A stretch of DNA of 64,000 nt from Escherichia coli (lineage in GTDB: Bacteria > Pseudomonadota > Gammaproteobacteria > Enterobacterales > Enterobacteriaceae): assembly GCF_003018115.1 (NCBI RefSeq), contig NZ_CP027457.1; one strand, given 5' to 3'. The position numbers and the translations under genes were made by a program. Of this stretch, positions 12,495 through 44,698 are shown piece by piece (position 1 is the stretch's first letter; each line of letters starts with the position of its first letter). The notes under the pieces are model-generated. The model worked only from the letters and a program-made list of their open reading frames with translations. It ran no database searches and was not told the origin of the DNA.

Positions 12495-13109
<615 letters not shown>

Positions 13110-19952: not shown

Positions 19953-20954
19953 TCAGAGTTTAGCGAATTTTTCGAGGGTGCGAATAAGCTGCGTGACGAA
20001 GCCATATTCGTTATCGTACCAGGCGACCGTTTTCACCAGTTGTAAATCGCCCACGGCGGTAATTTCCGTTTGCGTGGCATCAAACACCGAACCGAAATGG
20101 CTGCCAATGATATCGGAAGAGACTATTTCTTCATCGGTATAACCAAATGACTCGTTATTGGTGGTTGCTTGTTTAAGTGCGTTATTCACCTCTTCGGCAG
20201 TCACTTTTTTTCCGAGAATCGATACCAGTTCAGTGACCGAACCTGTTTTCACCGGCACGCGTTGCGCATGACCTTTCAGTTTGCCGCTCAGTTCCGGGAT
20301 CACCAGACCAATGGCTTTTGCCGCGCCCGTAGTGTGGGGGATGATATTTTCTGCCGCTGCGCGTGAAGCACGTAAATCTTTACCACGCGGGCCATCCACC
20401 AGTGACTGGGTGCCAGTATAGGCATGAATGGTCGTCATCGTGCCGACTTCTATCCCGAAACTGTCATGCAAGGCTTTGGCCATCGGCGCAAGGCAGTTAG
20501 TGGTGCATGACGCCACGGAAACAATGGTATCGTTGCCATCCAGAGTGTCGTCATTGACGTTATAAACGATAGTTTTCATTTCACCGGCAGGGGCGGAAAT
20601 CAACACCTTCTTCGCGCCAGCATCGAGATGCGCCTGCGATTTCTCGGCGGAGGTATAAAAGCCAGTACATTCGACAATGATTTCTGCACCTTTCGCTTTC
20701 CACGGAATATTTTTAGCCTCTTTTTCGGCGTAAACCGCGATACTTTTCCCATTAACGATAAGTGAATCTTCCGTAAAATCAACGCTCCAGGGGAACGGTC
20801 CGTAGTTTGAATCATGTTTGAGCAGGTAGGCGAGAATTTTTGGAGAAGTGAGATCATTAATAGCGACAACGTCTATGTTGCTTTTGACTTCAAGTAATCG
20901 ACGCAACACCAGTCGACCGATACGACCAAAACCGTTAATACCAACTTTACTCAT
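19953..20954 (-). CDS. gapC: glyceraldehyde-3-phosphate dehydrogenase C, apparently intact
   Basis: Uninterrupted 333-aa ORF with GAPDH motifs ([18 protein letters not shown]). Confidence 0.85.
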
Positions 20955-21142
20955 GGTTTTCTCCTGTCAGGAACGTTCGGATGAAAATTGATCCTTTCCA
21001 GGCTTAGACCAGGATTGTGGGATGGGCAATCTCCATTCTTACAGTGAAACGTAACGTACTGAAAACGGGTGAACAATATTTAATGAAATTTTGAGAAAAG
21101 CCCGTTATGTTAACGGAAAATTATGTTGAAGCAGGAAATGTT

Positions 21143-21673
21143 ATGGAAAATAAATACTCAAGGTTACAAATCGGCATTCACTGGCTGGTCTTTTTGCTGG
21201 TTATCGCAGCGTATTGCGCAATGGAGTTTCGTGGTTTCTTCCCACGTAGCGAACGGCCGCTCATCAACATGATTCATGTTTCCTGTGGCATCTCAATTCT
21301 CGTGCTGATGGTGGTTCGTCTTTTGTTAAGACTGAAATACCCAACCCCGCCGATTATACCTAAGCCGAAACCGATGATGACGGGACTGGCGCATTTGGGA
21401 CATTTGGTGATTTATCTCCTGTTTATTGCGCTGCCAGTGATTGGTTTGGTGATGATGTATAACCGGGGCAACCCGTGGTTTGCGTTTGGTTTGACGATGC
21501 CTTACGCTTCAGAGGCCAATTTCGAACGGGTAGATAGCTTAAAGTCGTGGCATGAAACGCTGGCGAATCTGGGATATTTTGTCATCGGTTTGCACGCTGC
21601 GGCTGCACTGGCACACCACTATTTCTGGAAGGACAACACACTTCTACGCATGATGCCGCGTAAACGTTCCTGA
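21143..21673 (+). CDS. cybB: cytochrome b561
   Basis: Internal ATG giving MENKYSRLQIGIHWLVFLL..., 176 aa, four TM helices with His ligands. Confidence 0.9.
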   Translation: MENKYSRLQIGIHWLVFLLVIAAYCAMEFRGFFPRSERPLINMIHVSCGISILVLMVVRLLLRLKYPTPPIIPKPKPMMTGLAHLGHLVIYLLFIALPVIGLVMMYNRGNPWFAFGLTMPYASEANFERVDSLKSWHETLANLGYFVIGLHAAAALAHHYFWKDNTLLRMMPRKRS

Positions 21674-21683
21674 AGAATATTTA

Positions 21684-21747
21684 AAGAAAACGCCTGTACT
21701 AAAACCGACCCGTGGTACAGGCGAAGAATACGGGTCTACATCGGAAG
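21684..21747 (-). ncRNA. rydC: RydC small regulatory RNA (Hfq-dependent pseudoknot sRNA)
   Basis: Minus strand reads CTTCCGATGTAGACCCGTATTCTTCGCCTGTACCACGGGTCGGTTTTAGTACAGGCGTTTTCTT (64 nt), which matches my recollection of RydC; lies between cybB and ydcA. Confidence 0.65.
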
Positions 21748-21917
21748 CGCCTATTATATTTATTTGTATGACAAATAAAACCATAATCCTTGCCCATACG
21801 TCTATCTGGCTTATTTTTAATCAATTCACCCGATCTTTGATCTCATCAACGGTATCAAAATAAACCAGCGTATAACGTTCAAATCGAACATAAGATTCGA
21901 TAAACCATGGAGGTTAT

Positions 21918-22091
21918 ATGAAAAAACTAGCACTTATTTTGTTTATGGGAACGCTTGTTTCCTTTTATGCCGATGCCGGGCGCAAACCCTGTTCTGGTTC
22001 GAAAGGGGGGATCTCACACTGTACGGCAGGCGGCAAATTTGTCTGTAATGATGGTTCTATTAGTGCATCGAAAAAAACATGCACTAACTGA
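21918..22091 (+). CDS. ydcA: small secreted Cys-rich protein
   Basis: 57-codon ORF (below the ORF-track cutoff) MKKLALILFMGTLVSFYADAGRKPCSG... with GGAGG RBS; signal peptide. Confidence 0.7.
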   Translation: MKKLALILFMGTLVSFYADAGRKPCSGSKGGISHCTAGGKFVCNDGSISASKKTCTN

Positions 22092-22162
22092 AGTGTAAAA
22101 GGGGTGCCATGAGAAAATGAATCTGCTAGTCAGATGCGCGGGGAAAATCCCCGCGCTTGCCC

Positions 22163-22354
<192 letters not shown>

Positions 22355-22370
<16 letters not shown>

Positions 22371-22420
22371 TCGTTGGCCTCGGTTGATAGAAATATCGGT
22401 CGGGGCCTTCGTCTTTCTGA
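22355..22420 (+). ncRNA. sokB: Sok-type antisense RNA to the mokB translation-initiation region (coordinates approximate)
   Basis: Inferred from the hok/sok architecture, where the antitoxin RNA is antisense to the mok start; ends not verifiable from sequence alone. Confidence 0.3.
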
Positions 22421-22644
22421 TTCCCGGTTAGCCTGAAAACAGAAAGTCTCAGGCACCCGCAGGCATCCTATGAGGTTTCCTTAGGGACGAAAATAATCAC
22501 TTCACGAAATTGCGTGCTGTTTTCCAGAATTTTTCGTCATTCGGGTTAGCCAGTTTAGCCATTCGTTACTCTCTTCATTCCAATAGCATTAATTTTCTCT
22601 GCAATAATTGTTGTAAAAATGTGACGCAAAGAGGTTTTTGGTCA

Positions 22645-22671
22645 TAAGTAATTACCGTCAAGTGCCGATGA
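22645..22671 (+). promoter_or_regulatory. sigma28 (FliA) promoter upstream of trg: TAAGTAAT-N11-GCCGATGA
   Basis: Close match to TAAAGTTT-N11-GCCGATAA consensus about 40 bp upstream of the trg ATG; trg is a class 3 flagellar/chemotaxis gene. Confidence 0.5.
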
Positions 22672-22710
22672 CTTTCTATCAGGAGTAAACCTGGACGAGA
22701 GACAACGGTA

Positions 22711-24351
22711 ATGAATACAACTCCCTCACAGCGATTAGGTTTTTTGCATCACATCAGGCTGGTTCCGTTATTTGCCTGCATTCTTGGCGGTATCTTAGTT
22801 CTATTCGCATTAAGTTCTGCTCTGGCTGGCTATTTCCTCTGGCAGGCCGATCGCGATCAGCGTGATGTTACTGCGGAGATTGAGATTCGGACCGGGTTAG
22901 CGAACAGTTCAGATTTTTTGCGTTCAGCCCGGATCAATATGATTCAGGCCGGGGCTGCGAGTCGTATTGCGGAAATGGAAGCAATGAAGCGAAATATTGC
23001 GCAAGCCGAATCGGAGATTAAACAGTCGCAGCAAGGGTATCGTGCTTATCAGAATCGGCCGGTGAAAACACCTGCTGATGAAGCCCTCGACACTGAATTA
23101 AATCAACGCTTTCAGGCTTATATCACGGGTATGCAACCTATGTTGAAATATGCCAAAAATGGCATGTTTGAAGCGATTATCAATCATGAAAGTGAGCAGA
23201 TCCGACCGCTGGATAATGCTTATACCGATATTTTGAACAAAGCCGTTAAGATACGTAGCACCAGAGCCAACCAACTGGCGGAACTGGCCCATCAGCGCAC
23301 CCGCCTGGGTGGGATGTTTATGATTGGCGCGTTTGTGCTTGCCCTGGTCATGACGCTGATAACATTTATGGTGCTACGTCGGATCGTCATTCGTCCACTG
23401 CAACATGCCGCACTACGGATTGAAAAAATCGCCAGTGGCGATCTGACGATGAATGATGAACCGGCGGGTCGTAATGAAATCGGTCGCTTAAGTCGTCATT
23501 TACAGCAAATGCAGCATTCACTGGGGATGACAGTAGGGACTGTTCGACAGGGCGCGGAAGAGATTTATCGTGGCACCAGCGAAATTTCCGCTGGCAATGC
23601 GGACCTTTCATCTCGCACCGAAGAACAAGCGGCGGCTATCGAACAAACTGCCGCCAGCATGGAGCAACTCACTGCGACGGTGAAACAGAATGCGGATAAC
23701 GCGCATCATGCCAGCAAACTGGCGCAAGAGGCTTCTATTAAAGCCAGCGATGGCGGGCAGACGGTTTCCGGGGTAGTAAAAACGATGGGCGCTATCTCCA
23801 CGAGTTCGAAGAAAATTTCTGAGATCACCGCCGTCATCAACAGTATTGCTTTCCAGACGAATATTCTGGCACTGAATGCTGCCGTTGAAGCTGCGCGAGC
23901 GGGTGAGCAAGGGCGTGGATTTGCCGTTGTCGCCAGCGAAGTACGGACACTCGCAAGCCGCAGCGCTCAGGCGGCGAAAGAGATTGAAGGCTTGATCAGT
24001 GAATCAGTCAGGTTAATTGACCTGGGGTCGGATGAGGTGGCAACGGCAGGGAAAACCATGAGCACTATTGTTGATGCCGTCGCGAGTGTCACACATATCA
24101 TGCAGGAAATCGCCGCCGCCTCGGATGAACAAAGTAGAGGCATAACGCAGGTTAGCCAGGCGATTTCTGAAATGGATAAGGTGACGCAACAGAATGCTTC
24201 TCTGGTAGAAGAGGCCTCAGCAGCGGCGGTGTCCCTTGAAGAACAGGCGGCACGATTAACTGAGGCGGTGGACGTATTCCGTCTGAACAAACATTCTGTG
24301 TCGGCAGAACCTCGCGGAGCGGGTGAACAAGTTAGTTTCGCTACGGTGTGA
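22711..24351 (+). CDS. trg: methyl-accepting chemotaxis protein III (ribose/galactose transducer)
   Basis: 546-aa ORF; two TMs, HAMP, conserved MCP signalling domain. Confidence 0.95.
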
Positions 24352-24388
24352 AAATGTTCAAGGAGGGATCGACAGATCCCTTCACCTT

Positions 24389-25312
24389 TCAGAACGGCAT
24401 TGATTTTCGAATAGCGTTAATCATCAACTGGCAACCAGAAGAGAACGTCGCATCTACGCGGGTCAGTATTCCAATCGGTTCGCCTGCACCATGTCCCGGA
24501 ACAGGCAGGGCCACCAGCGTGGCATGACGCAGGTCGTCTTTTACCGCGCCAGAAGGGACAAACCACACGTAGTCGTATTCAACCGTAAGTTGACGAGATA
24601 GCGAAGCAGACAGCGTTTCGATACAACCCGAAGGAATTTTACAGCCCTGGCTCTGCACTAATGCATCTGAATGCTGGCGTGGCGCAGTGCCTTCTGGCGA
24701 TACAACGACCGGCCATTCCAGCACCCGGCTTAGCGTTACGTTCTCCTGAAGTAGCGGGTGATTAGGGCGGACAACCAGCTTCAGCGATTCAAGAAACAGC
24801 AGTTCGTAATTAAGCCCGGTCATCAGTTCAGGATCTGACATCCGACCAATGCCGATATCGATTTCCCCGGTTTTTAAACCCGCCAGAATCATAGGGTTAC
24901 TCATTGTCGCAACTTGCAAGGTCGTCTCTTTTTGTTGCTGATGAAACTGACCTATAACCGAAGGTAATATCCCCAGTGCCGCAGTAGGTAGTGCACCAAC
25001 CCTGACGACATCATTATTAAGACCTTCTTTACGATGAAGCGACTGTCCGGCAGTGTTGATGGCGTCAAGAACTCTGACTGCATGCGTTAAAAATTGTTCG
25101 CCGGGTAAGGTAAGTTGCGCCCCCTGACGGCCACGCTCAAACAAGCGAGCGCCAGTCAGCTGCTCCAGTTCATTCAATGTCTTAGAGAGCGCAGGTTGAC
25201 TCAAATTAAGGGTTTCAGCCGCGCGCCCCAAAGTTCCTTGTTGTGCGACAGCTACGAATGTATGAAGGTGGCGCAAACGGATGCGCTGACTAAACAGACT
25301 ATTTTTTTCCAT
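24389..25312 (-). CDS. ydcI: LysR-family transcriptional regulator
   Basis: Internal ATG giving MEKNSLFSQRIRLRHLHTFVAVAQQGTLGRAAETLNLSQPALSKT... (HTH), 307 aa. Confidence 0.85.
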   Translation of the reverse strand: MEKNSLFSQRIRLRHLHTFVAVAQQGTLGRAAETLNLSQPALSKTLNELEQLTGARLFERGRQGAQLTLPGEQFLTHAVRVLDAINTAGQSLHRKEGLNNDVVRVGALPTAALGILPSVIGQFHQQQKETTLQVATMSNPMILAGLKTGEIDIGIGRMSDPELMTGLNYELLFLESLKLVVRPNHPLLQENVTLSRVLEWPVVVSPEGTAPRQHSDALVQSQGCKIPSGCIETLSASLSRQLTVEYDYVWFVPSGAVKDDLRHATLVALPVPGHGAGEPIGILTRVDATFSSGCQLMINAIRKSMPF

Positions 25313-25528
25313 AAGCGATGTTAAAAACGAAGCGGTGTCGCTGACAAGTGAAGTTGTTTGATTATGATAACTTGATTGCAAAATATTATTAACAATTAAA
25401 GCAATTATGTTACAGCAAAATGGATAATATTGATGTTTTCGCGGCGAGATCACAGTTTGTAAATTCTTCCCGCCAGAGTGAATGCGGTTACCTACACTCC
25501 AGATTACTGACCACTGGAGGCAGACACT

Positions 25529-26550
25529 ATGGCGAACAGCATCACGGCGGATGAGATTCGGGAACAGTTTTCGCAGGCAATGTCAGCCATGTACCAGCAA
25601 GAAGTTCCGCAATATGGCACGCTGCTGGAACTGGTAGCTGATGTGAATCTGGCTGTGCTGGAAAACAATCCTCAACTGCACGAAAAAATGGTAAATGCAG
25701 ACGAGCTGGCGCGACTGAATGTTGAACGTCATGGGGCGATTCGTGTTGGGACTGCACAAGAGCTTGCTACTCTTCGGCGGATGTTTGCCATTATGGGGAT
25801 GTACCCGGTGAGCTATTACGATCTCTCGCAGGCGGGGGTGCCGGTACATTCGACAGCATTTCGGCCCATTGATGATCCTTCTCTGGCGCGTAATCCCTTC
25901 CGCGTTTTTACCTCGTTACTCCGCCTTGAGCTTATCGAGAACGAAATTTTGCGCCAGAAAGCGGCGGAGATTCTGCGTCAGCGCGATATCTTCACCCCAC
26001 GTTGTCGACAACTGTTAGAGGAATATGAGCAGCAGGGCGGTTTTAACGAAACACAGGCACAGGAGTTTGTGCAGGAAGCCCTGGAAACGTTTCGCTGGCA
26101 CCAGTCAGCAACGGTAGATGAAGAAACCTATCGCGCCTTGCACAACGAACATCGGTTGATTGCTGATGTGGTCTGTTTTCCTGGATGCCATATCAACCAC
26201 CTGACGCCACGTACGCTGGATATTGACCGGGTGCAGTCGATGCATGGTTCCGGTACCGTCTGACGCCTTCGGGTGAGGCGCATCGTCAGGCGATTCATCC
26301 TGGAGACGATCCACAGCCCTTAATTGAACGTGGTTGGGTAATGGCGCAACCCATCACCTATGAAGATTTCTTGCCCGTTAGCGCGGCGGGGATCTTCCAG
26401 TCAAATCTGGGTAATGAAACGCAGGCACGCAGCCACGGTAATGCCAGTCGCGAAGCATTTGAGCAGGCGTTGGGTTGTCCGGTTTTGGATGAGTTCCAGC
26501 TTTATCAGGAAGCGGAAGAACGCAGTAAACGTCGCTGTGGTTTGCTTTAA
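25529..26550 (+). pseudogene. ydcJ: DUF1338-family (HglS-like) protein gene, frame-disrupted
   Basis: 244-codon ORF (25529-26263, good RBS) ends in a stop while protein-like sequence continues in frame +1 from 26227 to 26550 (...RYRLTPSGEAHRQ...YEDFLPVSAAGIFQSNLG...). Confidence 0.6.
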
Positions 26551-43756: not shown

Positions 43757-44698
43757 ATGGCGATGAACGTATTGCAATCACCTTCACGTCCAGGTCTGGG
43801 TAAGGTGTCCGGTTTCTTCTGGCGGAATCCGGGGCTGGGGCTGTTTTTGCTGCTGCTTGGCCCGCTAATGTGGTTTGGCATTGTCTATTTCGGCTCGCTG
43901 CTAACGCTGTTATGGCAGGGCTTTTATACCTTTGACGATTTCACCATGTCGGTAACGCCGGAACTGACGCTGGCGAACATCCGTGCGCTGTTTAATCCGG
44001 CGAATTACGACATCATTCTCCGCACGCTGACTATGGCTGTGGCAGTCACTATCGCCAGCGCCATTCTGGCTTTTCCAATGGCGTGGTATATGGCGCGCTA
44101 TACCAGCGGGAAAATGAAAGCGTTTTTTTATATTGCGGTAATGTTGCCGATGTGGGCGAGCTACATTGTTAAAGCCTATGCCTGGACGTTATTGCTGGCA
44201 AAAGATGGCGTGGCTCAGTGGTTTTTACAACATCTTGGGCTGGAACCACTGCTGACAGCGTTCCTTACATTACCTGCGGTGGGCGGCAATACGCTGTCAA
44301 CTTCCGGGCTGGGGCGCTTTCTGGTGTTTCTCTATATCTGGCTGCCGTTCATGATCCTGCCCGTGCAGGCGGCGCTTGAGCGTTTGCCGCCGTCATTGTT
44401 GCAGGCGTCAGCTGATCTCGGCGCACGTCCACGACAAACCTTTCGCTATGTGGTGCTGCCGCTGGCGATCCCGGGTATTGCCGCTGGCTCTATCTTTACC
44501 TTCTCACTCACACTGGGCGATTTTATCGTCCCGCAGCTGGTTGGCCCGCCAGGATATTTTATCGGCAATATGGTTTATTCCCAGCAGGGGGCGATTGGCA
44601 ATATGCCGATGGCGGCGGCATTCACCCTGGTGCCGATTGTTCTTATCGCACTGTACCTGGCGTTCGTGAAACGTCTGGGAGCGTTCGATGCACTCTGA
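43757..44698 (+). CDS. ydcU: ABC transporter permease
   Basis: 313-aa polytopic ORF; ATG overlaps ydcT stop. Confidence 0.85.

Follow-up and report, generated by a model that had tools for sequence, protein, structure and literature searches.

The FliA (sigma-28) promoter of trg in an Escherichia coli genome: an already published, conserved promoter with a CRP input

The motif, its locus and its chance level

The question raised by this locus is whether a sigma-28-type motif in front of a chemotaxis gene is the promoter of that gene and, if so, whether the promoter is already known. The window examined here (the whole stretch of 64,000 nucleotides) carries the neighbouring genes aldA, gap, cybB, hokB, trg and ydcI. 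The trg coding sequence occupies 22711-24351 on the plus strand (546 aa; ORF list and RefSeq annotation), and its product is annotated in RefSeq as methyl-accepting chemotaxis protein III, the ribose/galactose transducer. Direct reading of the window places the motif TAAGTAAT-N11-GCCGATGA at 22645-22671 (+), so that the sigma-28-type motif which the first-pass annotation had described upstream of trg is exact in sequence, spacing and coordinates. The site lies on the coding strand, within the approximately 250 nt that separate the hokB transcript start (22458, minus strand) from the trg ATG (22711), and 39 nt intervene between the end of the motif and the ATG.

Examination of the individual elements on the plus strand shows a -10 element, GCCGATGA (22664-22671, with the core CGA at 22666-22668), that agrees with GCCGATAA in seven of eight positions, and a -35 element, TAAGTAAT (22645-22652), that agrees with TAAAGTTT in four of eight. 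The two are separated by the 11-nt spacer TACCGTCAAGT (22653-22663), the sequence of which is unconstrained. Overall, 11 of the 16 consensus positions of TAAAGTTT-N11-GCCGATAA are matched, with five mismatches. The earlier description of a close match to the FliA consensus is therefore apt for the -10 element and not for the -35 element.

Over 22600-22710 the window does not differ from K-12 MG1655; the closest difference is a single substitution at 22599. Comparison with the known trg promoter, which had been proposed as a check, shows that the 28-mer is identical to the published K-12 FliA site. Relative to the K-12 trg promoter (the Fitzgerald 2014 site and the trg100 fragment of Hollands 2010), the gene, the distance to the ATG and the CRP site are the same, and there is no difference in the promoter; outside it, the window differs by the substitution at 22599 and by an intact gap gene. 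Because the site in the window is the K-12 trg promoter itself, the promoter is already known: positions 22645-22671 are the published FliA (sigma-28) promoter of trg, which is real, conserved and not new. Publications between 2007 and 2014 already described the promoter, its need for FliA and the direct activation by CRP. Of 5426 complete E. coli genomes searched by megablast, 5105 contain the 801-base query 22400-23200, and the feature beneath it is annotated as trg.

Several other features of the neighbourhood were recorded. The 801-base query shows 100% identity to E. coli strain AR_452, and the window is in K-12 coordinate register only over 20201-26200, so that it belongs to the chromosome of an E. 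coli strain other than K-12. The gap (gapC) ORF is intact (333 aa, 19953-20954, minus strand), and its K-12 counterpart is a pseudogene. Rfam identifies the RydC sRNA at 21684-21747 (-) and a full-length match to the "sok" family at 22307-22458 (-), which includes a terminator-like hairpin at 22376-22407 and ends at the published hokB/mokB transcript start (1490241, equivalent to 22458). In K-12, sokB is annotated on the plus strand, at 22360-22416; since the Rfam match is on the minus strand, the element beneath it seems to be the hokB leader and not sokB.

Searching the window for the consensus with up to three mismatches misses the trg site, because of its five mismatches, and returned two other matches at chance level. 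When the -10 element is required to match in at least 7/8 and the -35 element in at least 4/8 positions, at N11, the window contains 15 sites on both strands, the trg site included. A weight matrix was also built from the FliA ChIP-seq motifs of Fitzgerald 2014, with trg omitted, using either 51 sites or the 24 strong ones (fold above threshold >4). The trg site scores 14.9 bits with the former, ranking third among 127,946 window positions, and 15.9 bits with the latter, ranking second; the numbers of sites of at least this score expected per random 64 kb (first-order Markov, composition-matched) are 0.54 and 0.25, respectively. Given the 15 sites at threshold and a matrix rank of 2-3, the site, judged by sequence only, is close to what chance gives in 64 kb, and the motif by itself is insufficient for a call. 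In its genomic context, the trg motif is far beyond chance: the expectation for such a motif, on the right strand, in the approximately 250 nt that lead from the hokB start to the trg ATG is approximately 0.001, by arithmetic from the random-sequence counts. The -35 match of 4/8 falls inside the range of ChIP-bound FliA sites (0-8 of 8), and the trg -35 is a weak but genuine element.

Two further sites in the window are of use as comparisons. The first, CAAATTTCACATCGGTAATGCCGATAAA at 12587-12614 (+), has a perfect -10 element and outscores the trg site with the FliA matrix; its counterpart (K-12 position 12588 of locus L084) lies inside azoR, antisense to that gene, and is not among the 52 published FliA ChIP-seq sites (Fitzgerald 2014). 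The second, GCTGGGAATAAACCATATTGCCGATAAA at 44558-44585 (-), is a published weak intragenic FliA ChIP-seq site in ydcU (fold above threshold 3), unchanged here, with a perfect -10 element and only 1/8 matches in the -35. The locus thus has value for calibration: a sigma-28 match as good as this one is no more than chance would give in 64 kb, the window also holds a better-scoring site that is not bound in vivo, and position, conservation and experiment, not the motif, are decisive.

Conservation among trg orthologues

The conservation of the site was assessed in 80 trg loci, collected by scanning one genome per species with Trg residues 1-240. The set covers approximately 20 enterobacterial genera, among them Escherichia, Citrobacter, Enterobacter, Lelliottia, Leclercia, Kosakonia, Kluyvera, Pluralibacter, Phytobacter, Trabulsiella and Mangrovibacter. 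A matrix match of at least 11 bits is present on the coding strand, no more than 300 nt upstream of the start codon, in 79 of the 80 loci, and the best upstream match in these 79 takes the form TAAnnnAn-N11-GCCGATG, with a median score of 14.5 bits. On the opposite strand of the same 80 loci, the best match never exceeded 9.7 bits, and 4 of the 80 coding-region controls reach 12 bits.

When the 79 orthologues are stacked on the motif, the mean information per column is 1.83 bits in the -10 element, 1.34 bits in the -35 element, 0.42 bits in the spacer and 0.35 bits further upstream. The spacer drifts in sequence among the orthologues, and its length is constant at 11. The -10 element is nearly invariant, GCCGATGAC occurring in 59 of the 79; within the -35 element, T1 and A3 are invariant, A2 is found in 78 and A7 in 72. 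As judged from the aligned sequences, the -10 element, the -35 element and the CRP half-site described below form a clear phylogenetic footprint.

The conserved pattern extends to bases that depart from the consensus. Position 7 of the -10 element (22670) is occupied by a non-consensus G, which is kept in 73 of the 79 orthologues; among the 51 other E. coli FliA ChIP-seq sites, G occurs at this position in only two, and A in 46. None of the trg orthologues has a near-consensus -35 element. The conserved G at 22670 suggests that a sub-optimal strength may be maintained, a point that goes slightly beyond the published papers. It is conceivable, although we consider it rather unlikely, that the weakness of the promoter is selected and not tolerated, i.e., that purifying selection acts in favour of a poor, activator-dependent sigma-28 promoter, or that the G has a second, overlapping function. 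If this were true, the selected weakness would keep Trg scarce and tie it to carbon status. The conserved sub-optimal bases, together with the co-conserved CRP site, provide a small testable example of promoter tuning in the flagellar regulon.

A few loci stand apart. One strain of Trabulsiella odontotermitis (strain 01, L053) shows no FliA-like site up to 300 nt upstream of trg (best match, -0.2 bits), and a second strain of this species (L054) has one. Enterobacter mori (L038) has its motif 243 nt ahead of the ATG; the usual distance is approximately 50 nt. An insertion or rearrangement upstream of trg is possible in these two loci (L053 and L038). The locus titled Chryseobacterium sp. 18061 (L067) is an enterobacterial trg locus whose promoter 28-mer equals that of Citrobacter sp. 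18056 (L083), and contamination or a mislabelled assembly is likely.

FliA dependence, start site and alternative readings

Published experiments bear directly on this site. The 28-mer TAAGTAATTACCGTCAAGTGCCGATGAC is listed for trg under a FliA ChIP-seq peak with a fold above threshold of 23, the peak centre being at 1490461 and the motif centre at 1490443 in NC_000913.2 (Fitzgerald 2014, PMC4183435, Table 2). In the same study, deletion of fliA lowered normalised trg RNA significantly, from 108 in motile MG1655 to 4 (27-fold). Expression of a trg100::lacZ fusion is sigma-28-dependent (Hollands 2010, PMC2859248), and in microarrays trg is among the sigma-F-dependent genes, being 2.0-fold down in a fliA deletion and 2.2-fold up on induction of sigma-F (Zhao 2007, PMC1935009).

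A start site with trg as first gene is recorded at 1490461 (+), with 8 reads (Cho 2014, PMC3923258, Table S6). Since the trg ATG at 1490494 (NC_000913.2) corresponds to 22711 in the window, this start falls on the A at 22678 (+), 7 nt past the -10 octamer, rather than at a position elsewhere that would be independent of FliA. Although it comprises 8 reads only, the published start fits the sigma-28 expectation of approximately 6-8 nt past the -10 octamer; by analogy with aer, where transcription starts 6 bp past the octamer, the trg start would be 22677. Among the start-site tables searched, a start at the trg promoter was found only in Cho 2014. The expected trg start coordinates are absent among the matches listed in the Cappable-seq and SMRT-Cappable-seq supplements, and for trg the table of Kim 2012, from the same laboratory as Cho 2014, gives only a 4-read start 586 nt upstream. 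Our search of the literature found no primer extension or footprint on trg itself.

Three other readings of the motif were weighed against its being the FliA promoter of trg. The motif could be a chance match, with trg driven by another promoter, either a sigma-70 promoter or read-through from upstream. The random-sequence counts (0.25-0.54 sites per 64 kb), the 15 sites in the window at the same match count and the distant 4-read start of Kim 2012 would all be compatible with this. The exact motif, however, underlies a FliA ChIP-seq peak, trg RNA is lost 27-fold in the fliA deletion, the lacZ fusion depends on sigma-28, the start lies 7 nt past the -10 element, and 79 of 80 orthologues keep the motif around a drifting spacer; moreover, a sigma-70 promoter scan found no sigma-70-like site upstream of trg on the plus strand. 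A chance match is accordingly extremely improbable. ChIP-seq, RNA in the fliA deletion, the lacZ fusion, the start site and conservation agree that the motif is the FliA promoter of trg.

Another reading accepts the trg promoter as real and supposes that it is served by sigma-70 or sigma-38 besides sigma-28. Cho 2014 (PMC3923258, Table S6) indeed records ChIP-chip binding of sigma-70, sigma-38 and sigma-28 (D, S, F) at the trg start, together with S, H and F motifs. ChIP-chip, however, resolves poorly, and the promoters of hokB and sokB are no more than approximately 220 bp away; the motif calls of Cho 2014 are permissive, several sigma motifs being assigned to most start sites; the data set was criticised by Fitzgerald 2014 (PMC4183435); and the trg RNA that remains without FliA is 4 as opposed to 108. 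We therefore regard additional sigma factors at this promoter as improbable. Slightly less probable still is a one-base shift of the -35 register, to ATAAGTAA (22644-22651) and a 12-nt spacer; by direct reading this register also matches in 4/8 positions and brings an AAGT core into line with the consensus. The orthologues indicate otherwise: with T1 and A3 invariant and A2 in 78 of 79, the register is fixed at N11, whereas the GT of the core in the shifted register varies (46 G, 25 T and 7 C at position 4, and C or A in most orthologues at position 5). In addition, the published motif uses N11, and N11 gives a spacing identical to that of aer.

The placement of trg in the flagellar class 3 regulon is borne out by its sigma-28 dependence. 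The gene is not controlled by FliA only, since a CRP site and direct activation by CRP are also present.

CRP input, the likeness to aer and the leader

Upstream of the sigma-28 elements, CRP, a regulator of the response to sugar starvation, has a binding site, AAATGTGACGCAAAGAGGTTTT (22617-22638, plus strand), which agrees with AAATGTGATCTAGATCACATTT in 13 of 22 positions; its left half, TGTGA (22620-22624), matches 5/5 and its right half 0/5. The promoter call of the first-pass annotation included the FliA elements and left this CRP element unmentioned. The trg site was placed by the aer offset, counted back from the octamers in the K-12 aer upstream DNA, and its centre (22627.5) is 49.5 or 50.5 bp upstream of the start, depending on whether the latter is 22677 or 22678. 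In gel shifts, CRP binds a trg fragment with an affinity like that for aer; it activates trg100::lacZ, whose activity, with FliA provided from a plasmid, is reduced in the absence of CRP; and the CRP spacing at trg is identical to that at aer (Hollands 2010, PMC2859248).

The TGTGA half-site is kept in 72 of the 79 orthologues, at an offset from the start of the -35 element of -25 in 6 (Escherichia and Silvania) and -26 in 66; its frequency at random positions is 0.4%. The loci in which it is missing from the usual offset, with the sigma-28 elements kept, belong to Kluyvera (L035, L036, L041), Mangrovibacter (L080-L082) and Dryocola (L077). A TGTGA occurs further upstream in Kluyvera (by approximately 8 bp, offset -33) and in Mangrovibacter (by approximately 29 bp, offset -54). 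The alignments suggest that the CRP input may have been repositioned or lost in these three genera.

Like trg, aer combines imperfect sigma-28 elements with an MCP-type receptor product, and the products of both genes are low-abundance receptors. The two promoters share the same layout: a CRP 22-mer, a 6-bp gap, the -35 octamer, 11 bp and the -10 octamer. In the K-12 aer upstream DNA, the CRP 22-mer AATTGCGATCTAAATCAAATTA ends 6 bp before the -35 element TAAAGATA. The latter matches the consensus in 6/8 positions and is better than that of trg (4/8), whereas the aer -10 element, GCCGACAT, also at 6/8, is worse than that of trg (7/8); the aer CRP site matches in 17/22 positions, compared to 13/22. 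At aer, transcription starts 6 bp past the -10 octamer and CRP is centred at -49.5 (Hollands 2010, PMC2859248). The detailed mechanism, i.e., primer extension, KMnO4 footprinting and alpha-CTD positioning, was worked out at aer only.

The canonical class 3 promoters of tar, tsr, fliC, motA, flgM and flgK have in common with trg the sigma factor, the 11-bp spacing, the CGA core and the loss of expression in the fliA deletion. They match 13-16 of the 16 consensus positions as opposed to 11 for trg, which, like aer and unlike the canonical promoters, is weak and CRP-dependent. CRP binding was not seen at fliC/fliD, flgMN, flgKL, motAB or tar, and at tsr it occurs 132.5 bp upstream with no direct effect on expression (Hollands 2010, PMC2859248).

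Taken as a whole, 22617-22678 is very probably a single trg regulatory region, consisting of a class 3 promoter read by the FliA polymerase and helped by CRP. In the proposed mechanism, the FliA (sigma-28) polymerase would contact GCCGATGA as -10 and TAAGTAAT as -35, 11 bp apart, and transcription would start at approximately A22678 and yield a 33-nt leader. Since the -35 element is weak (4/8) and the -10 element has one non-consensus base, the promoter would be helped by CRP-cAMP, which, bound at 22617-22638, would aid polymerase recruitment from the unusual position first described for aer. CRP presumably compensates for the weak -35 element, and by analogy it may act at trg by the aer mechanism of polymerase recruitment. 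Trg would thus be made only once the flagellar cascade frees FliA from FlgM, and more strongly when CRP is active. Recognition by FliA combined with recruitment by CRP would therefore place trg late, in class 3, and add to its control an input of carbon status.

The 5' leader, by direct reading, spans 22678-22710 (+; 33 nt). It includes a purine-rich, Shine-Dalgarno-like GAGAGA at 22697-22702 (+), which is a putative ribosome-binding element; AAGAGAG before the trg ATG is kept in nearly all of the orthologues. Two further leader candidates were discarded: the hairpin CAGG-AGTAAA-CCTG seen in the window, because its pairing is broken in close Escherichia relatives, and the mini-ORF ATGACTTTCTATCAGGAGTAA (22668-22688), because its beginning precedes the mapped start. 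Most of the non-Escherichia genera (among loci L008-L083) share a leader block, ACAGGCGTGTTTTTACGCATCTTAC, approximately 8-25 nt past the predicted start. This block can form a 5-bp hairpin, GCGUG/CACGC (RNAalifold, -4.4 kcal/mol), in which compensatory change in two of the five pairs constitutes weak evidence for pairing. The Escherichia trg leader is unrelated to this block.
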